From NCBI GenBank assembly GCA_035714365.1, contig DASTMB010000014.1, positions 55,720 to 119,719 on the forward strand: DNA of 64,000 bases, read 5' to 3'. Below are positions 19,072 through 64,000 of the stretch, one piece after another. The position numbers and the translations under genes were made by a program. Within the stretch, counting starts at the first letter, position 1, and each line of letters begins with the position of its first letter. Below the pieces are notes generated by a model. The model worked only from the letters and a program-made list of their open reading frames with translations. It was not told the origin of the DNA and did no database searches. Source of the DNA: Mycobacteriales bacterium. GTDB taxonomy: Bacteria; Actinomycetota; Actinomycetes; BP-191.

Positions 19072-19074
19072 GGA

Positions 19075-21381: not shown

Positions 21382-21391
21382 GCCGACCGCG

Positions 21392-26855: not shown

Positions 26856-27009
26856 GTGCTCATCCTCGCACTCGGGTGTGACAGGTTCCTGGCCGCTGCG
26901 GGGAACGGGTCCCGCTAGATTCCGCGCCACGCTGCGCGTGGCGCTCCCTTTAGTCGCGGGACCCGTTCCCCGCACCGGCCCCCACACTCGCCCACCGCTG
27001 GAGGATGTC

Positions 27010-27414
27010 GTGAAGACCGAGGTGTTCTCGATCCGGACGGGGCGGGCGGCGGCGGCTGTCGATGTCACCGAGCGGGTGGCCGCGTTCGTGGCGGGGGAGG
27101 GGGACGGCCTGGTGAACGTGTTCGTGCCCCACGCGACCGCCGGGGTGGCGGTGATGGAGGTGGGGGCCGGGTCGGAGCGGGACCTGCTGGCGGCGCTCGA
27201 CGCCGTGCTGCCTGCCGACGACCGGTGGGCGCACCGGCACGGGACGAAGGGCCACGGGCGGGACCACGTGCTGCCGGCATTCGTGGCGCCGTCGGTGGTG
27301 CTGCCGGTGGTCGGCGGGCGGCTCGCGCTGGGCACCTGGCAGGCGGTCGTGCTGGTCGACACCAACGGCGACAACCCCGACCGGCAGGTACGGCTCACCC
27401 TCCTCCGGGGCTGA
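27010..27414 (+). CDS. YjbQ/UPF0047 family protein (secondary thiamine-phosphate synthase-like)
   Basis: GGAGGA RBS, GTG start. Motifs HTTAG / HRHG / GHGRDH. Confidence 0.7.
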
Positions 27415-27500
27415 GGTACTTGCGCGAGGCTCCCCGGCGCGTGTGGACTACGACGTAGCAACGGGCGGCCGGCGCCCGTGCGACGACCGGGGAGGCGCAC

Positions 27501-27941
27501 GTGGCGACCGCGGGTCCCGCGGAAGGGCAGCGCACGGCGGCGGACCGGCTCGGCATCGCGCCGGGGATGGTCGTGCAGGAGCTCGGGCGCGACGACGACT
27601 CCGACGCGGCGCTGGTCGAGGCGATCGTCGCCCGCGCGGGCACGGAGCCGGTGGCGGAGGACTCCGACGACGTCGTCGACGTCGTGCTGCTGTGGTTCCG
27701 GGAGGACGACGGCGACCTGGTCGACGCGCTGATGGACGCGCGGACCCGCCTCGACAACAACGGCGCCATCTGGGTGCTCACCCCGAAGGCCGGGCGCGAG
27801 GGGCACGTGGAGCCGAGCGACATCATCGACGCCGCGCCCACGGCAGGGCTGACGCAGACCAGCACCGTGTCCGCGTCGCAGGACTGGGCCGCCGCCAAGC
27901 TGGTCGTGCCGAAGGGGCAGCGCGCGCCGCGGCACCGTTAG
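27501..27941 (+). CDS. DUF3052-like hypothetical protein
   Basis: ORF with acidic N-terminal half. Low-confidence family assignment from memory. Confidence 0.5.
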
Positions 27942-27949
27942 GCCGGGAA

Positions 27950-27994
27950 CGCCGAAGGCCCGCCCCGGGCGAACCGGGAGCGGGCCTTCGGCGC
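27950..27994. terminator. Perfect 14-bp inverted repeat between convergent genes
   Basis: cgccgaaggcccgc ... gcgggccttcggcg. Confidence 0.55.
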
Positions 27995-28005
27995 GAACGG
28001 GACTA

Positions 28006-34068: not shown

Positions 34069-34173
34069 GGGTCGTGTGTAGCGCACCCCTGTGACAAGGA
34101 CGAACGGGTTTCCGGGATTCCCGCGCGGCGGCCTCCGGCGGCGTGCGCGCCGGTACGCTCGGACCGGCAACCC

Positions 34174-34249
34174 GGGCGCGTAGCTCAGCGGAACGAGCAC
34201 TCGGCTTACACCCGAGCGGTCGCAGGTTCGACCCCTGCCGCGCCCACCA
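34174..34249 (+). tRNA. tRNA-Val (anticodon TAC), including the encoded CCA
   Basis: Cloverleaf folded by hand: acceptor GGGCGCG/CGCGCCC, D arm GCTC/GAGC, anticodon stem CTCGG/CCGAG with loop CTTACAC, T arm GCAGG-TTCGACC-CCTGC. Confidence 0.85.
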
Positions 34250-34820
34250 CGCACGCGGTAACTGCGCCTACCTCTACTTGCGTTGCCGCGCTCAGGACCA
34301 GGTGGGCAATATCGCTACCTAAATAGCGCTTTAGAGCCGCTCGCCACGGATGCGAGGCAGGCGCGATCGCCCTGGAGTGCTTGTACGGTTGCTGCGTTCC
34401 GGCCCGAGCCGTTACGGCTTTGAACTGAGCGTCAGGACGGCGTGCTCGTTGCGGCGCCTGGAAGAAGCACTCCTCCAGCACGTCTGACGACTGTTGACGC
34501 GGACCGTAGCTGCCTGGTCGTGGCGGGGACGCGCACTCTTCCTCCCATCGAAGGAACGACGTCAGAGACGATGCGCCTCGCATTCGGTACAGATCTCGCA
34601 GGTCTGCAGGCTGAGCGACAGCCGGCCGCCCTACATGAGCGGTGGTCCCTAGGGGCCAACGGCGAGGCTACGGGTGACGTGTATCGGTGTGTTGAACGCG
34701 GTCCCAACCTAGGTCTCGGCTACTTGGACAACAGGCGCGCGCAGGCAGCACCCCGGCCGTACACTGTGTGTGCCCCATGAAGGATCGGTCTAAGCCGAGG
34801 AGAAAGATGGGCGGGGGACA

Positions 34821-37800
34821 ATGGAAGGTGCGTTCATCCTCGCGCGCGGCGACGAGCTCAGCCGCTTTCGGTCGTTGCTGGACGAGGTGCTGGAGAGCGC
34901 CCGGCATCCGTCGTTGACGAGCAGCAGTTACCTGGTCGTGATCCACGGTCTCGGGGGGATCGGCAAGACTGAGCTGTGGAAGCGCTACTGCGGAATCACT
35001 CGGGGTGACCTCGAGGACGACCTCCGCTTCCGCAGTAGGTTCACCCTCGCCGAGCTGGACTGGGAGATTGATCGCGAACGCAACCCGGGGGACTATTCGG
35101 CGACGGGACCCACTCTGGTGCGTGCGCTCAACGCGCTCTACCAGACCTTGGCCGCGGCTATGTCGTCCAAGAACCACCAGGGGCACGCGGAGAAGGCTTT
35201 CAAGCGATATCGGGAGCTCGCAGCGCAGCAGATTACCGGTCTACCGCGCGCAAATGATCCTCAGGGCTCGGCGCTGCAGACTGCGATCGAGTCGCTGGCG
35301 GACGTGGTGGGACCCGTCGACCCGACGCCCATGCGCGCCGCGGCGAAGAGTACCAAGGCTCTCGCCGCCATGGTCGGTGCCTTCGATACCGAACGCCGGC
35401 GCCGCAGGGGGGCCATGAACAGTGCCGACCTTGAGGCGGTGGCGCGCCCGGAACGGGCACTCACCACTGCGTTTGTCGCCGGCCTTCGTGACCTGACCCG
35501 CCATATCCCACCGATCGTGATCGCGCTGGACACGGCGGAGATCCTGGGCGACGCGCGAATCCCGCTGTTCGACGTGATCAACAGCCAGATCCCGCAGGTG
35601 GTCTGGGTACTGGCGATGCGGCTGGCCGGTACCGACAGTCAGGACGATTCGGTCGCTACCCGCTACCTGCGCGAAATGCCCTCCTCCCATCTGCGGGTCA
35701 TCGTGCCATCTCGGTTCAACGTTCCGGATATCGCGGAATACCTACACCGTCGCCTTGGCTACGCAGCCTCGGCGCCGGTCACTCCATCTGCAGTCCTCGC
35801 GCTTACCCAGGGCATCCCGCTCGCGGTACGGCTGCTGGCCGACCTGCTCGGGCGAGGAGCCGATCCGGTGGAAGCGCTGAAGGCGGTGTCGGACGATGGC
35901 GAGGTATCGACGGTCGTCACCAGCCTGGCCCGCCGCTATCTCGTCCACATTGCCGATCAACCCGACGCGCACGAGGACCTCCAGCGCATTTATGGCCTGG
36001 CACTGCTGCGCGGCGAGCGTGCTGATCCAGAATTGCTGGCCGCACTGTGGGGCGTGCCGCCATCGGATCTCGCCGTCGTGACAAGCCGGTTGATTCACAG
36101 GCACGATTTCGTTCGCAGCCGCGGTATGGAGCTACACCAGGACGTCCGGGATACGATCCGCGCCTACCTGCTCAACCCCGAGCGGCGAGCCGAGGTACAG
36201 GCCGCGAACAGGCGCGCAGTCGGTGTCCTGCGAGCTCGCACCGGGGCGCTCGGCCCAGTGACGATTGAAGAACAACTGGCCAGCGACGACTGGTGTACGG
36301 CGGCGCTCAACCTCCTCTGGCACACCCTGTGGGTCGATAGCCGAGAGGGGGTTCGCCTCCTTGCCCACCTGCTCCCCGCGTCGTATGTGCTCCGCCCGCA
36401 ATTTGCCCTCGCGTTACTCCAGGTCGCCGGCGAGTTCGGGCCGGTATGCACGGCGGAACTGCGCGAAGTGGTGGGCGGACTGCGATTGCTGATGCCGAGC
36501 TCGCCGTTCGTGATGGCGATCGGGACCGCACTGCGCCAGGCTCGCCAGCAGGGCGCATCCGACGCGATCCTCGACCGCGATCCTACCCAGGCCGCTGTAG
36601 CCTGGCTCGAAGCCGGAAGCGCCCTCCCGGAACCCGTGCTCGGCACGGATGTACCGCCAGGCACCCTGATCCCACTGCTGGACCTGTTGCGTCCGCGCCG
36701 GATCGAGGACAGGGCGGACTTGGACCGGTTGCTACTCCAGGCGGAGGCAGTCGACGCCGCGCTGCGGGTGGAGCCGGCTAGACATCCCCGGTTAATAGAG
36801 GCCGCCGCAAACGCAGCAGCTGAGCTGATGTGGTCGTACTACGAGAAGAAGGACTACGAGCGTGCCGCTCGGAGCGGCCACCTTGCGCTTCGACACGAGA
36901 CCGCCGACGTTGTTCGGTGGCACCGCTACTACCGGGTACTCTCTGCATCCGACGACCGAAACGGTGCACTGGCTGCGGCGGACCGGTGCGTTGCGCTCGA
37001 CCCGACGAGTCCGGTCAACCACCACAACCTCGGTGTCGCGCTGCAGGCGCTCGGCCGGCACGAGGAGGCGGTCACCCCGTTCCGGACTGCGGTCGATCTG
37101 GATTCCTCCTCGGCGCGCCGGCTCGCTCTTGCGCGGTGTCTCTTCGCCTGTGGACGGTTCGCGGAGGTGGTCAGCCTGTGCACCGAGGTTCTCGCGACTG
37201 AGGAGATTGCCGAGGCGCGGGTGCTCCGAGGTAACGCCCACGCCAGGTTGGGTCAGGACAACGAAGCGATCGACGACTACCAGGTAGCGGTCACGGGGGA
37301 AACGCCGTCCATTGCGGCGCTCAACAACCTCTATATTGCCCTGGCGCGCTCGGGTCGGCTGGAGGAGGCGCTAGCTGCGATCGACCGTGCGGTTGCGCTC
37401 GACCGCGCATCAGGCACCCACCAGGCGAACCGCGGCGAATGCCTGCTGCTGCTTAGTCGCCACGAGGAAGCCACGGCTGCCCTTCGCCATGCAATCGAAG
37501 ACGAACAGGACCACTTGGAGGCCCGGGTTCTGCTGGCCCTCATGTTGTGGACCACGGCGCCTGAAGCGGCAGTCGCGCTGTGCGAGCAGGCACTGCGCAG
37601 TCAAGGAGAGATGAACTCGCCGTTCCGCGCGGCCGAGCTGCGCGCTATTGCGAAGCTACTGCTCGGGGATGAAGCCGCCGCGGAACAAATTCTGCGCGAC
37701 GCTTCTGCGCGCCGGCTCCGGAGCGACTGGTACCAGGAACCGGTCTACGAGTTGCTTCGCTCATCAGGTGTCGCGGGAGTTGACCGGCTAATCGCGGTGT

Positions 37801-37835
37801 GGCGGGACGGAGAGTCTCCGGCGGTGCCGCTGTGA
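34821..37835 (+). CDS. STAND-type P-loop NTPase (NB-ARC-like, Walker A 'GLGGIGKTE') with a C-terminal TPR repeat array. No recognisable DNA-binding domain.
   Basis: 1004-aa ORF in lower-GC DNA immediately downstream of the tRNA. TPR-like 34-aa periodicity in the last ~300 aa. Confidence 0.8.
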   Translation: MEGAFILARGDELSRFRSLLDEVLESARHPSLTSSSYLVVIHGLGGIGKTELWKRYCGITRGDLEDDLRFRSRFTLAELDWEIDRERNPGDYSATGPTLVRALNALYQTLAAAMSSKNHQGHAEKAFKRYRELAAQQITGLPRANDPQGSALQTAIESLADVVGPVDPTPMRAAAKSTKALAAMVGAFDTERRRRRGAMNSADLEAVARPERALTTAFVAGLRDLTRHIPPIVIALDTAEILGDARIPLFDVINSQIPQVVWVLAMRLAGTDSQDDSVATRYLREMPSSHLRVIVPSRFNVPDIAEYLHRRLGYAASAPVTPSAVLALTQGIPLAVRLLADLLGRGADPVEALKAVSDDGEVSTVVTSLARRYLVHIADQPDAHEDLQRIYGLALLRGERADPELLAALWGVPPSDLAVVTSRLIHRHDFVRSRGMELHQDVRDTIRAYLLNPERRAEVQAANRRAVGVLRARTGALGPVTIEEQLASDDWCTAALNLLWHTLWVDSREGVRLLAHLLPASYVLRPQFALALLQVAGEFGPVCTAELREVVGGLRLLMPSSPFVMAIGTALRQARQQGASDAILDRDPTQAAVAWLEAGSALPEPVLGTDVPPGTLIPLLDLLRPRRIEDRADLDRLLLQAEAVDAALRVEPARHPRLIEAAANAAAELMWSYYEKKDYERAARSGHLALRHETADVVRWHRYYRVLSASDDRNGALAAADRCVALDPTSPVNHHNLGVALQALGRHEEAVTPFRTAVDLDSSSARRLALARCLFACGRFAEVVSLCTEVLATEEIAEARVLRGNAHARLGQDNEAIDDYQVAVTGETPSIAALNNLYIALARSGRLEEALAAIDRAVALDRASGTHQANRGECLLLLSRHEEATAALRHAIEDEQDHLEARVLLALMLWTTAPEAAVALCEQALRSQGEMNSPFRAAELRAIAKLLLGDEAAAEQILRDASARRLRSDWYQEPVYELLRSSGVAGVDRLIAVWRDGESPAVPL

Positions 37836-38185
37836 TCAAGTTGGACGTAGAGCTCCTCAAGCGCGCCCAGCTTGCCGAACTCCCACCGGCGTTCGTCAAC
37901 GTCATCTTGCGATCGACCTACGAGGAACTTGAGATGCGGGTCGGTGCGCGGCTGGCCGCACGGATGTCGGACGCACAGTTCGACGAATTCGAGACATTTA
38001 TAGACAATGACGACGACTCTGGAGCCCTCGCCTGGTTGGAAGCCAACTTCCCAGACTACCGTGAGATAGTAGCTGCAGAGTTCGACCGGCTGGTGGACGA
38101 GTTAGGTGCGGTCAGCCAGGAGGTCCGAGATATGGCGTTCGCATTGCTGCCCCCGTCCGACAGTCACGCGCGTGCCTTGTGGTAA
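37832..38185 (+). CDS. Small acidic hypothetical protein (117 aa), translationally coupled to the STAND NTPase by a GTGA overlap
   Basis: Start overlaps the upstream stop. No recognisable domain. Confidence 0.5.
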   Translation: MIKLDVELLKRAQLAELPPAFVNVILRSTYEELEMRVGARLAARMSDAQFDEFETFIDNDDDSGALAWLEANFPDYREIVAAEFDRLVDELGAVSQEVRDMAFALLPPSDSHARALW

Positions 38186-46780: not shown

Positions 46781-47011
46781 ATGTCGTACGAGCGGATCAG
46801 CATCGACCACGCGAAGATGGGCGGGCTGCCCTGCATTCGCGATCTGCGGATTCCGGTGAGCACGGTGATCGGGCAGCTCGCCGCGGGGCGCACGCACGCC
46901 GACATCCTGGCCGACTTCCCCGATCTCGAAGAGGCCGACATCGTGGCGGCGCTGGAGTACGCGGCTGCGGCGGTGCAGGAACGTGAGCTGCCGCTGGCGG
47001 CGCACGGGTGA
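46781..47011 (+). CDS. DUF433 domain protein (antitoxin-like)
   Basis: AGGAGGAG RBS. 'ISIDHAKMGGLPCIRDLRIPVSTV' DUF433 signature. Confidence 0.7.
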   Translation: MSYERISIDHAKMGGLPCIRDLRIPVSTVIGQLAAGRTHADILADFPDLEEADIVAALEYAAAAVQERELPLAAHG

Positions 47012-47385
47012 GGTTGCTCCTCGACGCGAACCTGTCGCACCGAATCGCTGTCCTTTTGCGAGCGCGAGGGTTCGACGCGAGTCACGTGCGCGACCACGGG
47101 TTGCAGCACGCGGACGACGAGGCGATCTTCGACTTCGCCGCTGCTGATGGCTGTGTGCTGGTGTCGGAGGACACCGACTTCGGGGAGATCCTCGCTACCC
47201 GGGGTGCGAAGGTCCCGTCGCTGGTCCTGCTGCGATCCGCCGAACCCATCAGCCCCGACGACTGCGTCGACCTGCTCGCCGACAACCTTCCATTGGTCGC
47301 GACCGCTCTCGACTCCGGGTCGCTGGTCGTCATCGCTCGGGGCCGGATGCGGATCCGCGCATTGCCCTTCGGGCGAGGCGAGTAG
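47008..47385 (+). CDS. DUF5615-like PIN-fold protein (toxin partner of DUF433)
   Basis: GTGA overlap with the DUF433 gene. 'LLLDANL' N-terminal acidic motif. Confidence 0.65.
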   Translation: MRLLLDANLSHRIAVLLRARGFDASHVRDHGLQHADDEAIFDFAAADGCVLVSEDTDFGEILATRGAKVPSLVLLRSAEPISPDDCVDLLADNLPLVATALDSGSLVVIARGRMRIRALPFGRGE

Positions 47386-49581: not shown

Positions 49582-50745
49582 TCAGGGAGTGCTCGGCGAT
49601 CGTCGGCGACAGAGCTCGGAGGCGGCAAGAGCGGATGACGGCGCGACGACAGTTGGCCGCGTTCGCGGGCGCCTCGACCGGCAGGGGCTCATGCGGCACT
49701 TCGCCGGCGGCGACATTAGGCCAGCGCCCCGACAAATCCGCGTGGGTGATCCGTACCAGCCGCGGCGTCCAGCCGGGCACGGTAGACGACCGGCTTGACG
49801 GCTGCGACGACCTCGATGGCGGTGTGCCAGCGCAGCAGCGGCTCCTCGGCAAGAGCATTGGTCACCACCGCCATGACCCAGTCCGGGTTCGTCACGGACT
49901 TGTCCAGTTTCGTTGGCCGTGACGTAGACGGTCGGTGCCGGTCCGCTGGTGGTCTTGACCTCGATGCATAGCCGGGCGTCAGTCAGGGTGGCGGTGATGT
50001 CCCACCCGCACTTCTCGCGGTCCACGAGATCGACCTTCCACGGCGGTGAGAAGTAGGCAGTGACCATGTCCATGCCGATCTTCTCTACGGCCTGTGGGTC
50101 GACGCTGTGCCCCTGCCTGGCGGTGAGGTCTCGTGCGCTGTCGCTGATGGCCTTGGCCGCCGGGTCGGTGGGCAGGTTGTCGAAGATCGACGGCCATTCC
50201 TGTAAGTGGCAGAAGGCGTGCCACAGGAACTCCTTGGCGTGCTCCAAGTCCACGAAGGACGTGCCCGGTAGCGCTTCGAGCGCCTCCCGGAGCAGGTCGT
50301 TGCTCCAGTAGGCCAGCCGCCCGATGCTCAGGCCGGTGCTGTCGGAGTTCGGCATGGGCAGTCCGAAGACCACCCGCCCGATGTCTTGCTTGCCCTTGCC
50401 GTTGGCGCTCTCGTACGGCAGCAGTGCGATGAAGCGCTGCGGCTGCATGACGCAGAGGACTTTTGTGAGCAGCACGACGCCGACGCCGTAGGTGTTGCCC
50501 ACCATGTCGGTTAGGCGGTCTTCCTCGTCGCCGGGGCCGCGCATCAGGTACTCGATGGTGCTGCGGACGCTCGCTGCCGTAGCCTCCGGCCCGTTCTCGT
50601 TCCAGCCCTTGTAGAACGTGCCGAGGTTGCCGGGCGCAGCCATCGTCGGTGACGTGATGAAGGCCCAGAGGTCGTCGGGGGTCGCGGCTGCCAAGGCTTC
50701 CGGGGTGCTGAAGATCGCCCGGTTCCGGGCTGCGTACTCGTGCAC
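49582..50745 (-). CDS. Hypothetical protein with a C-terminal DUF3883 / PD-(D/E)xK-like nuclease motif 'DLVDREKCGWDITATLTDARLCIEVKTT'. Possibly frameshifted at the 5' end.
   Basis: GTG at 50745 is one candidate start. The upstream ORF 50769-50987 in another frame suggests a disrupted N-terminus. Confidence 0.4.
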   Translation of the reverse strand: MHEYAARNRAIFSTPEALAAATPDDLWAFITSPTMAAPGNLGTFYKGWNENGPEATAASVRSTIEYLMRGPGDEEDRLTDMVGNTYGVGVVLLTKVLCVMQPQRFIALLPYESANGKGKQDIGRVVFGLPMPNSDSTGLSIGRLAYWSNDLLREALEALPGTSFVDLEHAKEFLWHAFCHLQEWPSIFDNLPTDPAAKAISDSARDLTARQGHSVDPQAVEKIGMDMVTAYFSPPWKVDLVDREKCGWDITATLTDARLCIEVKTTSGPAPTVYVTANETGQVRDEPGLGHGGGDQCSCRGAAAALAHRHRGRRSRQAGRLPCPAGRRGWYGSPTRICRGAGLMSPPAKCRMSPCRSRRPRTRPTVVAPSSALAASELCRRRSPSTP

Positions 50746-51173
50746 TTCGGGACTCGGCTCAGGTTGGATCAGCAGGTAGCGGGCCTTGAGGTCCGCAGGA
50801 GTGCGACGGTGTCGACCGGGATCTGGTCGGCCTTGGGGAAGGCCGCACGTGCCTCGGTCAGCGTCCGGACCCGTCTTCCGCCACGCTGCGCCGGGGGAGC
50901 GGGAGGCGGGGAGGCCAGATACGCGGCGACCGCCGCCTCGCAACTGGGGCAGCCCGGCACCGCACGGATGTGATCGCAGGTCATGCGCGAACTATGCCGC
51001 CCCATGGTGGCGCGAGTCCGCGGCCGATCTGAAACTGCCTCGCCCTTCACCGGCGACCCAGTCGGCACTAGCCGCTGTGAGCAGGTGCGCTGTGCGGGAG
51101 ACGAGGATGCCGAGCAATCCGAGCTTCTGAGCAGCAAGTGGCGTCCTGGGGTCTCACTGTCTTCAGCTGACGG

Positions 51174-53565: not shown

Positions 53566-55872
53566 TCAGCCGCTGCGAGCAAGGCGTCTGCGCTGCCTGC
53601 GGCAGTTGCTGCAGCCGGTGCCATTCCGCGTCCTGTTCTTCACGCTGGTCAACCACTCGAAGCCGCAGGCGCTGCATCGCCAGCGGCACCGGTCGTGGCT
53701 ACCGGCCTTCAGCATGTGCGGGAGCCGGTTGATGTTGGTCTCATTTGCAACGAACTCCGCTGCAAGCTCTGGGTGTAAGTCCGCGAGCGACCTGCCGGGA
53801 CGGGGACGGGCCTTGCCGGCCGCGGTCCGCGCTCGGGCACAGGCTGGGCATCCAGCACCGGCAGTGCGGCTGGCAACCGTGGTGCTCCACTCATGGCCAC
53901 ACGTGATGCACGACCAACGGCACGTCTTGTTCGACGATGAGAGAAGCGTGGCCGCCGTGTGCGCGGGCTCCGCGGTGCACTTGATCAACTCGGTGGCGAC
54001 AAGGGGATGGAGGTCGGCGAGGCTTGCGCCAGCCGGAGCGATAGTGCGCGAAAGACGGACCCGTTCACGGCCACACGAGGCGCAGCCTCTGCCTCGAAGT
54101 CGTGTCGCGGGGGACGCCGTGAATTGCTGTCCGCACGTTCTGCACCGCCAAGAGCAGGCCAGATTGCTCGACGGTCGGAGCGTCGCCGCCGTTCGAGAAG
54201 GGTCTGCCAGGCACGCGGTGAACTCGTCGGCGATCTCGGGATGTGTGTCGGCAAGGGACTCGCCCGGACCCGGAATGGAGCGTTGCCTGCTGGCAGAAGC
54301 AACGCGTGCGCGGCTGCAGGGCGGACAGCCCGAGCCTGTGCCAGCTCGGGATGCGACCGAGCTGATCCACGTGTGGCTGCATCTTGCGCACTGCCACTCG
54401 CAGCTGTCTCGTGCGTTCGGGCTCAGCCAGTCGAGCGTGACCCCTTCACGGGTCAGGTTCCGGCGGAACTCGCCGGCGAGCTGCGGCGCGATGTCGAGCG
54501 CGCTCGACCGGGGCGGTGCATTGACGTCAGCCTGCCAACTGGCGAAGGCGGTGGCCAGCGCGGCGGAACGCTCACCGAGTGTCAGCTTCTTCCAGTTGAG
54601 TCCCCTGCTCCTCACAGTCGGTCTGAGCGCATCTGCCCAGACGTAGGGGTCCTCGCAGCCGTCATCGACGAGAACGACCGAGCAGTCCAGCGCCGGCAGC
54701 GATCGCGGCCGGATGCGCAGGTATGTCTCACCGCGCATGGCGGCCGCTTTGCGCTGGTCTCGCTGCGGATGGCGGTGCCAATGCTTCGGGTCGAGGTCGA
54801 TTAGGAGTCCGATGTTGCTGATCGCCAGATCCACGCGCCACCGGCGACCGTCAGCTTCGACACCGACGTCGACCAGAACCGCGGTGCCGGTTGCTGCGGC
54901 GACTAGTTCTGCCACCTCATGTTCGAAGAGGGATCTGCCGTTGCGAGTGCATCGGGCGCAACCAGCACCGGCGACTCGCGAGGCGACCGTCGTGCTCCAT
55001 ATATGTCCCTTGCGGCAACGCCACTGGCAGATGTCGTTCGAGCCGGCTGCTAACAACTCTGGCCCGCGTCCAGGCACGGTCTGGTTCACGACGAACTCGG
55101 CGGCGACGCTCGGGGATACCTCCGAGAGGGCACGACCGGGCCGCGGATTCCGACGCGCAGTTCCGCTTCTCGCGTTGGCGCAGCGTGGGCAGCCACTGTT
55201 CTTGGTTACGCGGTTGGTCACGGTCGCCGTCCACCTGTACCCGCAGCTGCCGCATCGCCAGGCGCAGCGGTCCACGGAAGATGGGCGGAGTCCGTCGAGT
55301 CCGCTGCCGGGGTTCGTGAGGTTCTCGAGGAACTCGTGGGTGATCGCCGGCGCCATACCCGCCGCGGTCGCGGCATCATGCCGTGGACCCCGACGGCTGG
55401 CTGCTCGTGCCTGGTTGGCGCATGCCGGACAGCCGCGGCCGTGTGCACGGTTGGCGACGACCGATTCCCACTCTGTCGAGCACACACCGCACCGCCAGAG
55501 GCAGCGCTGCTTGCTTTTGACGCGCAACTCGGCTGGACCCATGTCGGGACGGTCAAGGTTGCGAACAAACTCGGCCGCAAGCTTGGGGTTTAGGTCTTTC
55601 AGTGCCTTGCCCGCGGGCGCTTGGGCGCGAGAACGGGCTCGGCGGGCCCAGGCGCACTCGGGGCAACCGGTGCCTGCCTGGGCCCGCGCGGCCACGGTTG
55701 TAGCCCACTGGTATCTACACAATCGGCAGCGCCACCGCACCTTGATGTTGCTGCCTAGGCCAAGGTTTGCGATGTTCATGTCCCGGCCCGGGGTAGTTAC
55801 CGCTTCAGCGAGGAGATCGGTCCGTCCGGCTCCGATCGTCTGCTGCGGCGCTGGTCCCGGCACGTGCACCAT
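53566..55872 (-). CDS. Protein with seven treble-clef zinc-ribbon repeats (pattern L..EF..N.....LxxxSxxxCxWRCxxCGHxWxTTVxxRxxxGxGCPxCA) flanking a central Vsr/DUF559-like endonuclease-fold segment
   Basis: Repeats read directly. The central 'RVDLAISNIGLLIDLDPKHWH...RGETYLRIR' resembles very-short-patch-repair-like nucleases. Confidence 0.55.
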   Translation of the reverse strand: MVHVPGPAPQQTIGAGRTDLLAEAVTTPGRDMNIANLGLGSNIKVRWRCRLCRYQWATTVAARAQAGTGCPECAWARRARSRAQAPAGKALKDLNPKLAAEFVRNLDRPDMGPAELRVKSKQRCLWRCGVCSTEWESVVANRAHGRGCPACANQARAASRRGPRHDAATAAGMAPAITHEFLENLTNPGSGLDGLRPSSVDRCAWRCGSCGYRWTATVTNRVTKNSGCPRCANARSGTARRNPRPGRALSEVSPSVAAEFVVNQTVPGRGPELLAAGSNDICQWRCRKGHIWSTTVASRVAGAGCARCTRNGRSLFEHEVAELVAAATGTAVLVDVGVEADGRRWRVDLAISNIGLLIDLDPKHWHRHPQRDQRKAAAMRGETYLRIRPRSLPALDCSVVLVDDGCEDPYVWADALRPTVRSRGLNWKKLTLGERSAALATAFASWQADVNAPPRSSALDIAPQLAGEFRRNLTREGVTLDWLSPNARDSCEWQCARCSHTWISSVASRAGTGSGCPPCSRARVASASRQRSIPGPGESLADTHPEIADEFTACLADPSRTAATLRPSSNLACSWRCRTCGQQFTASPATRLRGRGCASCGRERVRLSRTIAPAGASLADLHPLVATELIKCTAEPAHTAATLLSSSNKTCRWSCITCGHEWSTTVASRTAGAGCPACARARTAAGKARPRPGRSLADLHPELAAEFVANETNINRLPHMLKAGSHDRCRWRCSACGFEWLTSVKNRTRNGTGCSNCRRQRRRLARSG

Positions 55873-56044
55873 TCTCGTAGATCACGCGATAGCACGCTGG
55901 CAAGCGGCTGACTCCTCCGCGGCATGAGCGGACGTGCGGCTACGCCCCGTCGAGCATTCCGGGGCCCCGACCCGGGCGGTTTTGTCGGTATAGCAGCGCG
56001 AAGATGCTGCGCTCCGTACCGTCAGTTGACGGAGGAGACCGACG

Positions 56045-59000
56045 ATGAGCTCAACCGAAGCGCCTGTCGACCTCGGTCCGGCGCGCGCTGCCGACGCCGC
56101 GCGTGCCATCTTCCACGACCCGTCCGCGACCGGCCTGCACGAGCCCGTCGGACAGGACGAGTGCGCGGCCGCCGTCGCCGCGCTCGCGAGCTGCTTCTCC
56201 GGTGCCGGCGGGACGGTCAGCAACATCGTCGCGAACGCCCGGGCCGCCGCGCAGGTTCTGTCCGGCGACAGGCTCCAGGGACTGTCAGAGATCGTGCAGA
56301 ACGCCGACGACGCCGGCGCGTCCCAAGTCCGGATCTTCCACGCCGACGACGCGCTCCTGGCCGTCCACGACGGACAGCCGTTGACCCTTCGCAACGTTCA
56401 CGCGCTGGCCGCGCCGTGGCTCACCACGAAGCGCGACGACGCCGGCGCGACCGGCCGGTTCGGGATAGGCCTGCTGACCTTGCACGCGCTCGCGGACGCT
56501 TTCGAACTCCACAGCGCGGACTACCACTTGCGCCTGGGAGATCCGACACTCGAGACGATCCCCGCGTTCCTCGAGGCGGCCCTGGCCGGGCCCGACGACA
56601 CCGTCGTGCGGGTCCCGCTCAACCCGGGCGCGCTCGGCCCGGACGAGCTCATGGCCTGGTGCGAGCACTGGGACGACAGCAGCCTTCTGTTCCTGCGCAA
56701 CATCCGCAACATCACGTTCGTCGCGGCTGGCGGCCGCCGCGAGCTCGCGCTCCGCCCCGAACCGATGCCGCCCGTCACCTGGAACCTGTCCGGCGCCGAC
56801 GTGCCCGTCTCACGCGCCCGCGTCACCGCCGCCGACGGGCGGCGCTGGCTGGTCTACCAAGCAGACCTCGCCAGTCCCGGCGGTCTGCAGCGGGCCCACA
56901 AACAGACCGACCCGACGACGCCGGTCGGCGTCGCCCTGCCCGCCGCCGACCGCGGCACCGGCGGGCAGCTTTTCGCCGGTCTGCCCGTCGTCCCGATCCG
57001 CGCAAGGCTTTCCGCGAACGCCCAGTTCGACCCGATCGCGAGCCGACAGAACCTCGCAGACAGCGCCTGGAACTCCGCGCTCGCCGAGCGAGTCGCAGCG
57101 CTGTGGGCGAACGCCGTCCTCGACCTGTTCGCGGTCGCGCCCGCATCAGCGTGGGCACTCTTGCCAGCGCCCGCCGAGCCGGATCCCGCGAAGACTCACA
57201 GCGCCCGCCCGGGAATCGTTGACCAGATCGAGAGCCTCCTCGACGACGCCACGGCGCGCGAGATCGGCACCCGGCTAGTTCTGCCCGTCGACGGACGGCT
57301 CGTCCACGTGAACGACCTCGCGGTCGAAGCCGCGGCCCTCACCGGCATCGTCGGCGACGGCGAGATCGCGGCCCTCGCTGGTCTGGCCGACACGCTGCCC
57401 CGTACCGCCCGCGACGCGGACGGCCGCTGGCGCGACGTGCTCGCCGCCTGGCGCGGCGCCGGCCACGGACTGCCGCCGGAAGTTACCGTCGCGGACGCGC
57501 TGCCGCTCGCCGAGGACGATGGACGCGACCCACAGGCAACGCTTGCCCTGGTCGCCGCCGGCGTCGGCGCCGCGCTCTACCAAGCCCTCGCGCGCCTGCG
57601 GTGCGTGCTCCTCCGCGACTCAAGCCGGACGACGCCTCCCGACCCGGACGAGCTCCGCGTGCTCACAGGCGGCGCCGGCGGGCTCGCCACGTCGCTCGGC
57701 ATCGCCGACGAGCTCCACCCGTCGCTGCTCGCAGACACCGACGATGCAGCTGCCGTACGCGCGTGGCTCGAACACCGCCACAAGCTTGTCGACTCGGACG
57801 GTGACGCCGACGTCCTCCGACTCCTCGCAGACGCCGGCAACCGCGGCCTAACGCTCGACCAGCCGCTCGCCGACGGCCAGGCCGTCGCGCTACGCAACGG
57901 CCTCGAGCACGCCGGCCAGGCCGACTGGCAACGCCTCGGAGCCGGCATCGGCAAGGCAATCCGGCTGCACGCCGTCACCTACGGCCCCAGGGGCAAGCTC
58001 GAGAACACCACCGCCCGGCCCGCAGACGCCTACCAGCCGAAGACCATCGACCGCGAACCCGACAGCTTTGCCGTCGCGGCGGACACCACACCGGGGCTGT
58101 TATGGATCGCGCCGCGGTACTCCGCCGTCCTGCGCTCGCCCCTGGGCCGTGCAGGCCTTGGCGCGCAACGTTTCCTGCGCCTTCTCGGAGCGGAGACATC
58201 GCCGCGGCTAGAGCCTCACCCCCGGCTGCTCTCCCGATACTCCGACCCGCGGCGCGGCCTGCACATCGACATCGCCGGCACCACTTCCGAACGCGCGCAG
58301 GCCCTGCGCGACCTGCAGGCGAGCTACTCCCTCGACGACCACCACAGCCCCGACCTGCAGGCCGTCCTCGACCACATCGCCAGGGACCGCAAGGCGACCC
58401 GCCGCAGGCAGCGGGCCGCGGCCGTCCTCAGTGTCCTCGGGCGATCGTGGACCTCGCTCGCCGACCACGCGCAGGTCCCCGCAGCGCACGACTACAACGG
58501 CTGGCGCCTGCAAGGGCCCATCCGCTCATGGTGGCTCTGGGCAGCGGGCAGCGTCGCATGGCTCGACAACGCCGCGTCGGTGCCGTCCGCGCCGAAGGCC
58601 CTGCGGCTGCGGACCCCGGCGACCGTCGCCGTCCACGGCGACGACGCCGGGTCGTACCTGCACCCTTCGTTTCGGGCCGTCCGCGCCGACGTACTCGCGC
58701 ACCTGGGTGTCGCCGGCGAGCCAAGTACCCGAGAGCTCGTCGCCAGGCTTGAGCACCTCCGCGCGTCGCCGGCCGCCCTCGACATCGCCGCGGAAACCGC
58801 GATCGTCTACCAGGCCCTCGCCGACCGTGCCCGGGAAAGGCGGCGCTCGTCGGGGCACCTGCCCCCGAACAAGCTCCGCGAGCTGTTCGGCGCCGGCACG
58901 GGCCTCATCCTCACCGCGAAAGGCTGGCTTCCGCCCGGAGAGGTTTTGCGCGGTCCGCCGGTCTTTGGGCCGTATCGGGCATTCGTCCCGCAGACGGCAG

Positions 59001-60580
59001 GCACCGAGCCGCTCTGGTCGGCCCTGCAGGTAAGGCGGCCCGACCTCGATGACTGCCTCGGCGTCCTGCGCGACATCGCGAAGACGCGCCTTGCGGACAC
59101 GCCGACGCGCACCGTCGTTCTGGAAATCCTCCGGCTCATGGCCCAACTCGTCGCGGCCGCAGACGTCGACGACCGGATCGCGAAACGCCTCCAGCGCGCG
59201 CCCTTGCTCACCAGCCAAGGCTGGACCGCCGTCCGGCCCGTTTACTGCGTCGACGACCTCCCGCTAGCAACCGGCATCGCCGACAGCCTGCCCGTCTGGG
59301 CGCCCGGCGGCGAACTCGAGCAGTTCAAGGCGCTCGTCCGGCCGCTGCGGCTCACGTCTGTCTCCGTCGCGGACGCGCCCCTTGTTAGCGTCGCCGACAG
59401 CTACCTCGACGATGACACGACCGAACTGCTCCACGACGCCGTTGCGCTCCTGCGCGAGGACCTAGCCCGCAACGACCCGGCGAGCGAACAGGGCCTGACC
59501 TGTGGCTGGGACGTCCTCGAGACGCTCGACGTCCGCATCGCCGCCGAGCTGCGGGTCTCCCTCGACACGGTGCCCGGTCGGCCGACGACGGTGCCCGTCG
59601 CCGCGCGGCTCGACGTAGCCGCGGCGACGCTCTACCTCACCGACCCGGACGACGTTGGCCGCGTCGACAGCGGCGGCCGTGCCGTCGCCAGCGCGTTCTC
59701 GGCGGACCACAGAGCGATGTCGCAGGCGTGGCTCGCCGCGATCGCCTCTGCCCGGGAAGGCCGCGCGGCGGTACGGCTCCGGCTCGCCGCCGAGACTGCG
59801 GCAGACGAAGCCGCCAAGTCCCAGGCCGCGATCAGCGCGAAACTCGACGAGCTCAGAGGACAGGTTAAGGACCGGAAAGCCAAAGCAGCGACCGGGACAG
59901 GGGCCAAGGGCCGGGCGACAACCCTCGCGAAGGACCTGCCGCCGCCCCCGCCCGGTCGCAAGCCTGCGCTGTCCCCCACGCCGCGCGTTCTCGTCGACCC
60001 GTCGACGCTCGTCGTCGTCGATCCCCAAGGCGTCATCGTTTCCGGGACCGGCGCTCCGCCCGCCCGACCCGGCGCGACGGAAAAGCCTCGCGGTCCGCTG
60101 CCCGCGCCGCGGCCCGGCGGCGCCGTGCCGAGCGCGCGAAAGTCGCGACGCGACTACACCGACCTGGAGAAGGAGACGGTCGGGCTCGAGTTGGTCCGTC
60201 GTGTCCTGGGCGGCAGCGCGAAAGAGATCGTCGATCTGCGTGCGCAGCACGGCGTCGGCGCGGACGCCGTCGACGAGCTCCGTCAGTTCTACGAGCTCAA
60301 GGTGGCCGCGGGCACCGAGCCTGACGAGATCGTGCTGGAGGACGCACAAATCCGACGCGCCTTGTCGGCGAAGGACTTCTTCCTTGTCATCGTCTCCGGC
60401 GTCGAAGGCGCAGCGGCAACCCCGCGCGTCCGCGTCGTCGTCAACCCCGTGGGGCAGCTCCGAATGTCCAAACGCAGCCAGGTCCGGTTCGGCGGAATCC
60501 GGCAGTCGCTCAGCCTGGTTTACGACCTGCGTCCCGCCGCGGACGCCGGGCCGGACGACGCCGCGCCGACCGCCGGCTGA
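56045..60580 (+). CDS. 1511-aa protein: N-terminal GHKL/sacsin-MORC-like ATPase (Bergerat motif 'SEIVQNADDAGAS'), long middle region, C-terminal DUF3883-like nuclease domain
   Basis: Motifs read in the translation. Low-GC context. Confidence 0.75.
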   Translation: MSSTEAPVDLGPARAADAARAIFHDPSATGLHEPVGQDECAAAVAALASCFSGAGGTVSNIVANARAAAQVLSGDRLQGLSEIVQNADDAGASQVRIFHADDALLAVHDGQPLTLRNVHALAAPWLTTKRDDAGATGRFGIGLLTLHALADAFELHSADYHLRLGDPTLETIPAFLEAALAGPDDTVVRVPLNPGALGPDELMAWCEHWDDSSLLFLRNIRNITFVAAGGRRELALRPEPMPPVTWNLSGADVPVSRARVTAADGRRWLVYQADLASPGGLQRAHKQTDPTTPVGVALPAADRGTGGQLFAGLPVVPIRARLSANAQFDPIASRQNLADSAWNSALAERVAALWANAVLDLFAVAPASAWALLPAPAEPDPAKTHSARPGIVDQIESLLDDATAREIGTRLVLPVDGRLVHVNDLAVEAAALTGIVGDGEIAALAGLADTLPRTARDADGRWRDVLAAWRGAGHGLPPEVTVADALPLAEDDGRDPQATLALVAAGVGAALYQALARLRCVLLRDSSRTTPPDPDELRVLTGGAGGLATSLGIADELHPSLLADTDDAAAVRAWLEHRHKLVDSDGDADVLRLLADAGNRGLTLDQPLADGQAVALRNGLEHAGQADWQRLGAGIGKAIRLHAVTYGPRGKLENTTARPADAYQPKTIDREPDSFAVAADTTPGLLWIAPRYSAVLRSPLGRAGLGAQRFLRLLGAETSPRLEPHPRLLSRYSDPRRGLHIDIAGTTSERAQALRDLQASYSLDDHHSPDLQAVLDHIARDRKATRRRQRAAAVLSVLGRSWTSLADHAQVPAAHDYNGWRLQGPIRSWWLWAAGSVAWLDNAASVPSAPKALRLRTPATVAVHGDDAGSYLHPSFRAVRADVLAHLGVAGEPSTRELVARLEHLRASPAALDIAAETAIVYQALADRARERRRSSGHLPPNKLRELFGAGTGLILTAKGWLPPGEVLRGPPVFGPYRAFVPQTAGTEPLWSALQVRRPDLDDCLGVLRDIAKTRLADTPTRTVVLEILRLMAQLVAAADVDDRIAKRLQRAPLLTSQGWTAVRPVYCVDDLPLATGIADSLPVWAPGGELEQFKALVRPLRLTSVSVADAPLVSVADSYLDDDTTELLHDAVALLREDLARNDPASEQGLTCGWDVLETLDVRIAAELRVSLDTVPGRPTTVPVAARLDVAAATLYLTDPDDVGRVDSGGRAVASAFSADHRAMSQAWLAAIASAREGRAAVRLRLAAETAADEAAKSQAAISAKLDELRGQVKDRKAKAATGTGAKGRATTLAKDLPPPPPGRKPALSPTPRVLVDPSTLVVVDPQGVIVSGTGAPPARPGATEKPRGPLPAPRPGGAVPSARKSRRDYTDLEKETVGLELVRRVLGGSAKEIVDLRAQHGVGADAVDELRQFYELKVAAGTEPDEIVLEDAQIRRALSAKDFFLVIVSGVEGAAATPRVRVVVNPVGQLRMSKRSQVRFGGIRQSLSLVYDLRPAADAGPDDAAPTAG

Positions 60581-60742: not shown

Positions 60743-61087
60743 CTACTCCGTGAAGCTGAGTTGACCTGCAGCAGCGCGCGACAGTGTCAGCGTCGCGCCG
60801 TGCAGGGTGAGGTCGAGCGACAGGCCACTCTCGAGCACAGCCTGCACTCCAGCGTGATCACGGGCCGCGACCACGCCGACAACGTCGGCCAGCTCGTCGA
60901 GAACGACGAGCTGGTCCTTATCGTCCGACTCGACGATCGACACCGCCACAGGGTCAGCAGACACATCACCGCCGACCTGCACGCTGGCCTTGGCGCTGCC
61001 GGTCGCCATCAGCTCCCCGAGCTTGTGCCGGTCGTTCCCCTGGACGTACGCGAGAAGGTCCAGCACGTCGGTAGGCGACGCGTTCAA
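60743..61087 (-). CDS. Small hypothetical protein (114 aa) whose TTG start overlaps the helicase stop (TTGA). Alternatively it is the true C-terminus of the helicase after a -1 frameshift.
   Basis: The frame after the helicase stop stays open and protein-like for 114 codons. Confidence 0.35.
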   Translation of the reverse strand: MNASPTDVLDLLAYVQGNDRHKLGELMATGSAKASVQVGGDVSADPVAVSIVESDDKDQLVVLDELADVVGVVAARDHAGVQAVLESGLSLDLTLHGATLTLSRAAAGQLSFTE

Positions 61088-64000
61088 CCTCTCGCGCCAC
61101 CCACGGATGTGCAGTCCGGCGAGGAAGTCACGCAGACCCGCGGCGTCCAGTCCCGCCTCCCGTGCGATCCGCCCAGGTCCCGCGCCAGTGCGCGGCTCTT
61201 GACGTCCCGCACTAGCAGCTCGATCGCGAGCGGGGTGTCCACGCCGTATCGCAGATGCGCTGCCGTGCTCGGGTACAGCTGCATCGGGCTTAGGCGCGAG
61301 AGCAGGATGTCGTTCGCATGGCTGACGACGAGCCCCACGGTCCACGACAAGTAGTGCTGAACGCCCTCGCTGATGCCGTCGACCGTCTGCTCGAGCCGGA
61401 ACGCGGGGTCCGGCACGGCCCCCAGGTGCGCATCGGCCAGGTCCGTGAAGTCCCGGCCGGCGACCCAGTCGCGGACCAGAACCGCAGCGGGCACATTCAA
61501 CGAGGCCCCCCTGGGGGACACCTTGAAGCGCCAGTGCTTTTGCGCCTCGGGCACGGCCAGAAGCCTCGAGTACACGTCCAGCTCGGTCAGCACGTCCAGC
61601 GTCGCATCCAAGGACAGCTCCCCGATGCTGCCGAGCTGCTGCACCCGGTCAGCGACGTCCTTCGCGATCGTCTCCAAGACTGCCGCCGTGCCGAGGCTCG
61701 TCCCAGCCTGCGCCCACCGACGTCGTGACGCTGGGGCCGTCCGCGCGTACCGGTCCGCGACGACCTCCGCCAGGGCGAGCCACCGTGCCTTGAGGTCCTC
61801 ACTGAGCTGCGTGAACGCGAACAGGCGCGTAACGACGTCACGCCAGTTGCCTGTTGCGGCCAGGTTCGGCACGAGCTCGAGGGCGTGCATGACGAACCAG
61901 ACGTAGTTGACGAAGCCACCGGTCTGGCCGTCGTGCGGGAGCTGCAAGATCGCATCCTGAGTCTGCGCGACGAGGGCCTCTGCCTCGGCGAGTGCAGCCA
62001 TGGCGGCCTCGTCGGCTAGCGTCGAGCGGACCTCCAGGTCACTCGCAGCGGGGGTCAGCCGGTCGAAGTCGCTGTCCTGCAGAGTCTTGGGTAGCGACAG
62101 GACGATCCAGCCCTCGGACTCCTTGCCGGCGCGGCCCGCGCGACCGACAGCGTTGAGCAGCTGAGCGGGCGTCATACGCTGACCCGGGTCTTGCCCGTCG
62201 TACGACGTCGTGGCGATCACGACCGTCCGCACCGGCAGATTGACACCGTCGGTCAGGGTGCTAGTGGCGACGACGGCTCGGAGCCTCTCGTCACGGATGG
62301 CGTCCTCGACGGCTTCCTGCACCTCGACGGGCAGGCCCGCGTGGTGGTAGCCGATGCCCTTGCGGACGCAGGCCACCAGCGGGTGGTCGGACCCGAGCCG
62401 GGCGGCGAGCGCGTCGGCGAGCCCCTGCGCCCGGGGCTCGTCGTCGAGCATCTCCGCCATGACCTTGGCAGCGTCACGCGCCTGTGCACGTTGCGTGACG
62501 ACCATCAGCAAGCTCCCTGCCCGCAGCAGCCATGTCGCGGTCCGAGCGGTCGTGACGTACGCCGGCGTCGTGTTGCCCTTGCCGGTCACGCGCTCGTTCC
62601 CTCTCAAGACGAGCTGACCGATCGGGGAGTCGTCGGTGGTGACGAGCTCCTTCTGCGTAGCGCTCGTCGGGCGCACCGAGAGCTTCGCGCGAAGGTCGTA
62701 CCGCGTCTTGGGAACTGCGCTGCCGCGCACGGGCACCGTTGTTTGACTCGGCAGAATCTTCTCGGTCGTCATCAGCACGTGCAGCCGCCTGGGGGCCCGC
62801 CACTCATCGGTGAATAGCACGTTGCCCTGGCCGCGGCTCGCCCATGTCGCGAGCGAGGCAGCGTTCCCGATCACGCCAGAGAGCAGCATGAGCCGGGCGC
62901 CGCTCGCCTCGAGAACGGACAGCAGACCGTCCATCAGCAGGCCCCGTCCGCCTGACTGGGCGATGAGGTGCGCCTCGTCGATGATGAACAGGCTGAAGCG
63001 GTCAAGCACCTCCTGCGGCGACTGACGTAGTGCATTCATCAGCCGCTCGGGTGTCATTACCTCCACCTGCGGAAGCGATGCGCCGTCACGGTCGCCGTTG
63101 CTCTCCTCACTGAGGAGGTCCTGGTTGCCGAAGCCGTCCGGGAGATCGGCGCCAAGACGCCGGTCGAGGTAGCGCAGGCGAGACCGGAGGGCTTGGCGCA
63201 TCTCCCTGCCGAGACTGCGCAGCGGCGTGACGTAGCAGACGTCGCCGGTGTCCTGCGCGGTGTGTGCGCAGATGATCAGCTGGGCTAGCAGCGTCTTACC
63301 CGCGCTGGTCGGCACGGACACGAGCAGACGGGACGTGTCCGGGTGGAGCGGCCCGTTCGCCGGGGCGGCGATGAGCTTGCGCTGCGGTGGCCAGAGCGTC
63401 AGGACCGGGTTCCGGTCCAGGGTGAAAGCCTGCTTGACCGCGGCGGGGAGACTCGGGGGCAGGACGGCCCAGACGCTGTTCTCGCCGAGCCCGTCGGCGA
63501 GAGCCAGCAGGTGCGCCGCGACCCAGCGGGTGTCGAGGTCGCTGAGGCCAACCACCTCACGTACGACGAGCTCGAGGTGACCACGCGCGGCGTCCAGGAC
63601 CTCGACGTCGCCTTCGCGCAGGTACGTGACGAGGTCGGCGACGCCGCGCAGCAACCGCTGCGTCGGCCCGAACATGGTTCCGTCGAGGCTCCCGAGCTGT
63701 GTGCCGCGGGTGAGCGCACGAGCGGCGGAGCCCCAGGCCCGCAGCCGCTGGCTGAGGATGGCGACCTCCATGCCGAGGAACAAGATCCCGGCGTGTAGGG
63801 CGACGTCGCCACCGTTCGTAAAGGCCGGGATCGGGGTGTCGTCGTCACGAAGGTGCCGACGGATCGCGGCGGCGTTCGGGCTCTGGTCTGCGCGGTGGTA
63901 CCCGACCTGGGCCGCGAACGCGGTGTTCAACCGGGCGGTCCCGACCTCAGCGGGGTCGGACAGGAGTAGGTCGAGGACGTGCGAGCTGACCGCGAAGGCG
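61084..64000 (-). CDS. Large DEAH-box superfamily-2 helicase (Lhr/Ski2-like), 5' partial (the frame continues beyond the window end)
   Basis: Motif I 'PTSAGKTLLAQL'. Motif II 'FIIDEAHLI'. Motif VI 'NAVGRAGRAG'. No stop upstream of 63930 up to position 64000. Confidence 0.8.
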   Translation of the reverse strand, partial: AFAVSSHVLDLLLSDPAEVGTARLNTAFAAQVGYHRADQSPNAAAIRRHLRDDDTPIPAFTNGGDVALHAGILFLGMEVAILSQRLRAWGSAARALTRGTQLGSLDGTMFGPTQRLLRGVADLVTYLREGDVEVLDAARGHLELVVREVVGLSDLDTRWVAAHLLALADGLGENSVWAVLPPSLPAAVKQAFTLDRNPVLTLWPPQRKLIAAPANGPLHPDTSRLLVSVPTSAGKTLLAQLIICAHTAQDTGDVCYVTPLRSLGREMRQALRSRLRYLDRRLGADLPDGFGNQDLLSEESNGDRDGASLPQVEVMTPERLMNALRQSPQEVLDRFSLFIIDEAHLIAQSGGRGLLMDGLLSVLEASGARLMLLSGVIGNAASLATWASRGQGNVLFTDEWRAPRRLHVLMTTEKILPSQTTVPVRGSAVPKTRYDLRAKLSVRPTSATQKELVTTDDSPIGQLVLRGNERVTGKGNTTPAYVTTARTATWLLRAGSLLMVVTQRAQARDAAKVMAEMLDDEPRAQGLADALAARLGSDHPLVACVRKGIGYHHAGLPVEVQEAVEDAIRDERLRAVVATSTLTDGVNLPVRTVVIATTSYDGQDPGQRMTPAQLLNAVGRAGRAGKESEGWIVLSLPKTLQDSDFDRLTPAASDLEVRSTLADEAAMAALAEAEALVAQTQDAILQLPHDGQTGGFVNYVWFVMHALELVPNLAATGNWRDVVTRLFAFTQLSEDLKARWLALAEVVADRYARTAPASRRRWAQAGTSLGTAAVLETIAKDVADRVQQLGSIGELSLDATLDVLTELDVYSRLLAVPEAQKHWRFKVSPRGASLNVPAAVLVRDWVAGRDFTDLADAHLGAVPDPAFRLEQTVDGISEGVQHYLSWTVGLVVSHANDILLSRLSPMQLYPSTAAHLRYGVDTPLAIELLVRDVKSRALARDLGGSHGRRDWTPRVCVTSSPDCTSVGGARG

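Follow-up and report, generated by a model that had tools for sequence, protein, structure and literature searches.

TmtA, a probable single-gene Tiamat defence protein joining a sacsin-type GHKL ATPase to a predicted NOV_C-type nuclease domain, in a Mycobacteriales genome

Does the 1511-amino acid (aa) protein encoded near the right-hand end of a 64,000-nucleotide stretch of a Mycobacteriales metagenome-assembled genome (MAG) belong to a known anti-phage system, and how might such a protein work? The stretch analyzed, referred to here as the window, spans positions 55,720 to 119,719 of contig DASTMB010000014.1 (assembly GCA_035714365.1), and the gene in question, tmtA, joins an N-terminal GHKL ATPase module to a C-terminal nuclease-like domain. 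We conclude, with a probability of roughly 0.85, that its product TmtA is the sole component of a Tiamat anti-phage defence, seated in a variable chromosomal defence island of this actinobacterium. A preliminary description of the same DNA, made from the sequence without database searches, had been unable to place the architecture in any named system, which proved wrong.

The identification depends on the PADLOC model TmtA (PDLC03968), which matched residues 12-1498 of the protein on model positions 10-1483 of 1486 (E=0, 1464.9 bits). This is an end-to-end match, and the 1511-aa protein is therefore a member of Tiamat. Tiamat is already named and PADLOC would call tmtA automatically, so that the system itself is known. 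It is a single-gene system attributed to Millman et al. 2022, with a mechanism that reviews give as unknown; a domain survey classes it among the single-gene PD-(D/E)xK systems, and a survey of Actinobacteria counts it with the systems for which this phylum is enriched and describes it as "almost always chromosomal". The tmtA product is thus very likely a TmtA-family defence protein, its defence role being predicted from sequence.

The gene itself is well founded. The open reading frame (ORF) starts with ATG and is translated without an internal stop, and both the ORF and the three motifs quoted in the preliminary description were recovered as reported. The G+C content of the window is ∼72%, and long spurious ORFs are common at such values. 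That tmtA is nevertheless a real gene, and not a by-product of high GC, follows from its codon-position GC of 0.77/0.54/0.87, a coding pattern, and from its homologs at E<=1e-5, of which there are 292, nearly all of them colinear, full length, and 1470-1550 aa long. An identical protein has been deposited as a "hypothetical protein" of a Mycobacteriales MAG. A scan for promoters and terminators around tmtA was uninformative.

The N-terminal module consists of a Bergerat ATP-binding domain (aa ∼78-215) followed by a beta-rich second domain. The motifs and fold that mark GHKL ATPases are present: motif I (ExxxNxxD; E82, N86, D89), within LSEIVQNADDAGASQVRI at aa 80-97 (window 56282-56335), the GxxGxG lid (G137-R-F-G-I-G142), within GRFGIGLLT at aa 137-145 (window 56453-56479), and the fold. 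Residue invariance, here and below, was scored over 30 homologs of 40-86% identity. In these, E82, Q85, N86, D89, H108, G110, G137, R138, G140, G142, and T145 do not vary, nor do R283 and K286 of the second domain, which are candidates for a gamma-phosphate sensor. Since the GHKL motifs are intact and invariant, the ATPase looks catalytically competent, as judged from its sequence.

Two curated models matched aa 80-174 above their cut-offs: Pfam SACS with 35.2 bits against 32.8, and NCBIfam P_loop_sacsin with 75.4 bits against 50. The only solved sequence relatives found in the PDB search were crystal structures of the sacsin SR1 region, with an E-value of 0.0026 for the single sequence and 1.7e-6 for a 12-sequence profile. 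An AlphaFold2 model of aa 1-1200 has a mean predicted local distance difference test score (pLDDT) of 72, with aa 10-640 mostly at 80-92. When compared with the PDB by Foldseek, as the preliminary description had proposed, it gave 78 matches at E<=1e-3; the 50 listed are all GHKL proteins, with probabilities of 0.93-1.00, and include Hsc82/Hsp90, the GyrB/ParE 43K fragments, MutL N-terminal domains, and sacsin SR1, the last with a TM score of 0.53 on target and 18% identity. The preliminary description had called the ATPase sacsin/MORC-like. The GHKL and sacsin-type assignments stand, but the MORC likeness does not: HATPase_c_3 was detected in just 5 of the 30 homologs, at E about 1e-3, and for this reason we type the module as sacsin/Hsp90-like rather than MORC-like.

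The C-terminal domain is assigned to the NOV_C/DUF3883 type through an intermediate homolog. A scan of species-representative genomes identified a 1545-aa Bosea protein that shares 29% identity across query residues 33-1471 and bears both Pfam SACS and Pfam NOV_C above their gathering scores. Its NOV_C match, at aa 1427-1497, clears the cut-off of 22.1 both in the complete protein, with 25.5 bits, and when the domain is searched alone, with 30.9 bits (E 2.8e-7). An Arthrobacter homolog matches NOV_C at E 0.011. A profile built from 20 C-termini of the window family aligned with the Bosea domain at 97.9% probability (E 3.9e-13, 126 columns). The same profile was compared by hhalign with a second NOV_C protein, encoded upstream of tmtA in the window and described below: against the single upstream sequence the probability was 0.5%, and against an 8-sequence family of that protein P was 0.0075, with the helix glutamate, G-x-D, and E-x-K in register. 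Comparison of the profile with PDB sequences gave a chance match only. The invariant C-terminal residues are E1377, D1397, R1399, G1405, A1406, D1407, D1410, E1417, K1419, and V1420, many of them within GVGADAVDELRQFYELKVAAG at aa 1403-1423 (window 60251-60313). The AlphaFold2 model of the C-terminus has a mean pLDDT of 77 and a core near 90. We regard the domain as a divergent member of the NOV_C/DUF3883-type PD-(D/E)xK group with an invariant E...D...ExK signature; nuclease activity is predicted.

Between the ATPase module and the C-terminal domain lies a conserved middle region that has no Pfam family match and no sequence relative in the PDB at E<=5. It is rich in invariant tryptophans, glycines, and arginines, including 14 invariant tryptophans from W342 to W1229, and is modelled with high confidence over aa 340-640 and poorly over aa 640-890. 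The subsequent linker, helical and then Pro-rich, contains in its otherwise disordered Pro-rich stretch a family-wide motif, PRxLVDPxxLxVVDPxG, at aa 1313-1329 (window 59981-60031), with R1314, L1316, and G1329 invariant in the alignments. AlphaFold2 renders the motif as a strand with a pLDDT of 81-90, surrounded by residues below 50 and separated from the C-terminal domain by ∼40 disordered residues. The motif may act as a latch; alternatively, it may belong to the nuclease domain as one of its strands.

Several observations weigh against the Tiamat reading or parts of it. With the remaining eight TmtA models of PADLOC, matches are weak and confined to parts of the protein (E-values from 1e-24 to 6e-7), so the Tiamat protein that was tested by experiment may be only distantly related. 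Our literature search found no experiment on this protein or on the actinobacterial TmtA subfamily. Pfam NOV_C (PF13020) did not match TmtA, its last 178 aa (E<=10), or the 30 homologs (E<=0.1). Two segments, aa 1393-1402 and 1409-1414, are helical in the AlphaFold2 model, whereas a canonical PD-(D/E)xK fold would have its strands 1 and 2 there. Foldseek comparison of the C-terminal model with the PDB, also proposed in the preliminary description, did rank PD-(D/E)xK enzymes on top (DpnI, NaeI, ThaI, and Hjc resolvase), but none was significant (best E 0.09). Dimerization, trigger, and substrate of TmtA are all argued from analogy. Despite the failed Pfam test, we consider the NOV_C/DUF3883 assignment secure because of the Bosea intermediate and the profile alignments with both the Bosea domain and the upstream family. 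The DUF3883-like C-terminus proposed in the preliminary description was thus upheld by this indirect route and not by the direct one.

To what extent TmtA acts alone can be judged from its distribution and neighbours. A pattern-based scan of one genome per species (185,579 species) found at least 71 TmtA loci, a number that is a lower bound. Most belong to Actinomycetota or Chloroflexota, a few are from Proteobacteria, and one is from a Gemmatimonadales MAG, so that the distribution is patchy and crosses phyla. Among 1.84 billion cluster representatives there are 433 TmtA-family representatives at E<=1e-30. Carriage of tmtA on phages or plasmids was considered and rejected: the gene is essentially absent from phages (one partial match) and was found on only 7 of 72,556 plasmids, mostly giant Streptomyces replicons. 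A gene on the Sphingomonas naphthae plasmid NZ_CP117413.1 (99064-100023), annotated as "DUF3883 domain-containing protein", matches the TmtA GHKL region (aa 59-351) with 26% identity, which suggests a more distant sacsin-ATPase plus DUF3883 relative in Proteobacteria.

All flanking ORFs of 61 full-length loci, representing 31 clades at 65% TmtA identity, were clustered. In no case did a neighbour family extend beyond 4 of these clades, the most frequent over the 61 loci being a tyrosine integrase, and a conserved partner gene was accordingly rejected. Matches among 111 neighbouring ORFs from 28 clades were varied and include integrases (5), DNA methylases, Mrr and type IV nucleases, and restriction-modification proteins, together with GajB-like (Gabija-like) helicases, AbiEii, MADS, PbeA, MkoA (Mokosh), and DRT. 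The Nocardioides and Acidothermaceae tmtA contexts share nothing with the window locus, and the three annotated contexts are mutually unrelated. With variable flanks and no widely recurrent neighbour, tmtA is thus carried as a lone gene by variable islands, as expected of a single-gene system. These data also bear on a non-immune reading, in which TmtA would serve the cell as a sacsin/Hsp90-like housekeeping chaperone or take part in DNA repair in the manner of MutL. Although the nearest solved structures are sacsin, Hsp90, and MutL, such a role is scarcely credible for a gene that is so patchily distributed across phyla, whose variable flanks are rich in integrases and defence genes, and whose product fuses the GHKL module to a predicted nuclease and is matched from end to end by a defence-system hidden Markov model.

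Table 1. Coordinates of tmtA, the domains of its product, and other features of the island, in window positions
Feature	Position	Strand	Basis
tmtA, complete 1511-aa Tiamat-family gene including stop codon	56045..60580	+	ORF list, translation, PADLOC TmtA, homologs
Sacsin/Hsp90-type GHKL ATPase module, aa ∼56-335	56210..57049	+	Pfam SACS, NCBIfam P_loop_sacsin, PDB profile search, Foldseek
Conserved middle region, aa 336-1250 (∼915 aa), presumed clamp or sensor scaffold	57050..59794	+	Conservation, AlphaFold2
Helical, then Pro-rich flexible linker, aa 1251-1365	59795..60139	+	Alignments, AlphaFold2
Divergent NOV_C/DUF3883-type PD-(D/E)xK nuclease domain (predicted activity), aa 1366-1500	60140..60544	+	Conservation, Bosea homolog, profile alignments
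DUF433 gene (46781-47011), overlapping a PIN_10/DUF5615 gene (47008-47385) by 4 bp	46781-47385	+	
Stand-alone DUF3883/NOV_C gene with two frameshifts, outside the Tiamat unit	49719-50984	-	Pfam NOV_C, tblastn
768-aa protein with eight DUF4379 treble-clef zinc fingers	53566-55872	-	Pfam E 2.3e-89
Superfamily 2 (SF2) helicase, convergent to tmtA, running past the window end	61084-64000; the region continues at 15040-23281 of the longer public contig (L001)	-	PADLOC

Within the window, the DNA before ∼46 kb looks like ordinary chromosome, with genes for pyruvate dehydrogenase E1, a histidine kinase, a major facilitator superfamily transporter, an M36 peptidase, and large cadherin-like proteins. 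From ∼46 kb the GC falls to 0.67-0.69 and the gene content shifts. At the left edge of this low-GC island, the overlapping DUF433 and PIN genes look like a toxin-antitoxin layout. Beyond the window, the longer public contig continues with a RosmerTA pair (RmrT 2.6e-34, RmrA 1.1e-126) and then an IS481 transposase.

Three neighbours of tmtA in this island raise the question of a multi-gene system. The first is the second DUF3883-like gene that the preliminary description had located 5 kb upstream, at 49582-50745. The gene exists, its product matching Pfam NOV_C with 27.7 bits (cut-off 22.1; E 2.8e-6), but its true span is the one given in Table 1 and it is frameshifted: tblastn with an intact 422-aa homolog (P0122, 91% identical) finds it in frames -2, -1, and -2, that is, with two frameshifts, and in the alignment the tail of its product diverges after VTANE. 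The ENA and JGI assemblies both have the same interrupted product (P0121, 387 aa) among their gene calls. We take the gene for a probable pseudogene, unless the assemblies share an error here, and its candidacy as a functional paralogue of tmtA was rejected on account of the frameshifts.

The second neighbour, transcribed divergently from tmtA across a gap of 172 bp, encodes the zinc-finger protein, in which the DUF4379 repeats flank a central non-repeat segment of ∼120 aa. The public calls on the same contigs place two plus-strand genes (53732-54646 and 54812-55927) over it, apparently a case of high-GC DNA called on the wrong strand. The third, directly downstream, is the SF2 helicase, 1052 aa long in the longer public contig, where it is preceded by a 306-aa gene without a PADLOC match. 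Its best PADLOC matches are PDC-M23B (2.4e-68 for the window part, 3.4e-68 in full) and HamB (2.9e-55 and 4.6e-55).

It could be argued from the proximity of these genes that tmtA is part of a multi-gene system with the zinc-finger protein, the upstream DUF3883 gene, or the HamB-like helicase. We consider this very improbable: none of the three recurs beside TmtA elsewhere, the Nocardioides and Acidothermaceae contexts being entirely different, and the helicase is convergent to tmtA and has its own upstream partner gene. The upstream DUF3883 gene, being frameshifted and unconserved beside TmtA elsewhere, is not a partner of TmtA.

Some features of the remaining window may be recorded here. Two proteins of ∼1300 aa, encoded at 2-3934 (+) and 6454-10416 (+), contain Big_9, cadherin-like, and beta-helix domains, and their genes have an extreme third-position GC of 0.96-0.99 and an unusually low first-position GC of 0.52-0.61. 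A tRNA-Val(TAC) at 34174-34249 (+) borders a second region of lowered GC (0.66; 34000-38000), which holds the gene of a 1013-aa tetratricopeptide repeat protein (34794-37835) and may be another inserted segment. At 24069-28403 (-), a stop-to-stop frame of 1444 aa has pyruvate dehydrogenase E1 domains only in residues ∼665-1393; its first ∼660 residues are probably noncoding, an over-extended open frame in high-GC DNA.

How might TmtA work? By analogy with VcSduA, HmaA, and the paraMORC-type fusions of GHKL+S5 to nucleases, all compared below, we propose an ATP-gated clamp. The N-terminal GHKL domains would bind ATP and dimerize into a clamp, as other GHKL enzymes do, and the ∼900-residue middle region, presumed to be a clamp or sensor scaffold, would sense an infection cue, which may be phage DNA, a DNA structure, or a phage protein. 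ATP-dependent conformational change or clamp closure would then release or position the tethered C-terminal NOV_C nuclease, and the freed nuclease would nick or cut DNA, so that phage DNA is destroyed or the infected cell is stopped (abortive infection). We put the odds on these steps, in which an ATP-gated dimeric clamp licenses the nuclease, at about even.

For annotation, the gain is that a "hypothetical protein" becomes a named defence gene, and that the right-hand end of the window can be read as a defence island comprising a putative toxin-antitoxin pair, Tiamat, and a Hachiman-like helicase, with RosmerTA just beyond the window. The scientific value is modest; the Tiamat mechanism is listed as unknown in the literature. 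The residue map provides direct mutational targets in the ATPase (E82/N86), the nuclease (E1377/D1407/E1417/K1419), and the linker motif, and the link to the characterized NOV_C nickase of HmaA leads to a concrete biochemical expectation.

Among known systems, TmtA is closest to Tiamat as modelled by PDLC03968, to which it is colinear end to end and with which it shares its single-gene nature, enrichment in Actinobacteria, chromosomal location, and the single-gene PD-(D/E)xK class. Nothing sets the window protein apart from its own subfamily, and the models of other TmtA subfamilies match it partially.

A mechanistic parallel is VcSduA, a type I-D Shedu protein of Vibrio cholerae, which unites a GHKL ATPase with a DUF4263 PD-(D/E)xK nuclease (PMC12137116). 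Its authors designed variants in which ATP hydrolysis (E27A) or the nuclease should be impaired, predicted a dimer with a clamp-like middle domain, and hypothesized that the C-terminal nuclease is under the control of the GHKL ATPase (PMC12137116). Both proteins combine in one polypeptide an N-terminal GHKL ATPase (motifs I-IV in VcSduA), a middle domain, and a C-terminal PD-(D/E)xK nuclease, a predicted one in TmtA. They differ in the nuclease family (DUF4263 versus NOV_C), in the ATPase (HATPase_c versus sacsin-type GHKL), and in the middle region, which is far longer in TmtA, at ∼900 aa. No Shedu or DUF4263 family was among the PADLOC or Pfam matches of TmtA.

The nuclease parallel is HmaA, a Snf2 helicase with a NOV_C/DUF3883 domain, which like TmtA tethers a C-terminal NOV_C with a D...ExK motif to an N-terminal ATPase. 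The HmaA NOV_C nicks supercoiled DNA with Mn2+ and is needed for abortive-infection defence (PMC11232893). The HmaA motor, however, is a P-loop SF2 helicase and not a GHKL ATPase, and HmaA usually occurs with HmaB and HmaC.

Fusions of GHKL+S5 to E-D-ExK nucleases were proposed by Iyer, Abhiman and Aravind in 2008 to act on DNA in restriction-like systems (PMC2292703). Among them, paraMORC3 resembles TmtA in combining GHKL with a C-terminal restriction-fold E-D-ExK domain and in often standing alone without conserved neighbours (PMC2292703); it has been described mainly in Proteobacteria and Bacteroidetes, and the likeness is drawn from description only. This likeness lends some credit to the idea that TmtA is a GHKL ATP-dependent restriction endonuclease (BbrUII/HgiDII-like or a paraMORC-nuclease fusion) that reads DNA sequence or modification directly and is not an infection-triggered abortive system, as do the DNA methylases and Mrr-type nucleases in some tmtA neighbourhoods and a weak match of NCBIfam restrict_BbrUII (NF050001) in the GHKL region (E 0.058). 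That match, however, aligns only the GHKL motif region and reaches 11.9 bits against a cut-off of 550 bits, the mark of a non-member, and no methyltransferase is conserved beside TmtA or adjacent to tmtA in the window. We therefore judge a restriction endonuclease unlikely; the idea overlaps with a single-gene Tiamat defence and differs from it only in the choice of target.

A further comparison is with eukaryotic proteins. Pfam names the type of the C-terminal domain of TmtA after plant NO VEIN (NOV), and the ATP-binding domain is of the type found in animal sacsin; NO VEIN also has a sacsin-type ATPase domain. In contrast to TmtA, both are eukaryotic and have developmental or chaperone roles. 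It is conceivable, though we hold it doubtful, that the TmtA clade of Actinobacteria and Chloroflexota works unlike the tested Tiamat, that the middle region may be a new sensor fold, and that the linker motif may latch a NOV_C nickase inactive until the sacsin-type ATPase closes; if so, the shared layout of sacsin-ATPase and NOV_C would make NO VEIN a eukaryotic descendant of a bacterial immune protein. Tiamat models match plant genome sequences in plant-associated metagenomes (PMC12409356), which fits the naming of NOV_C after the plant protein NO VEIN.

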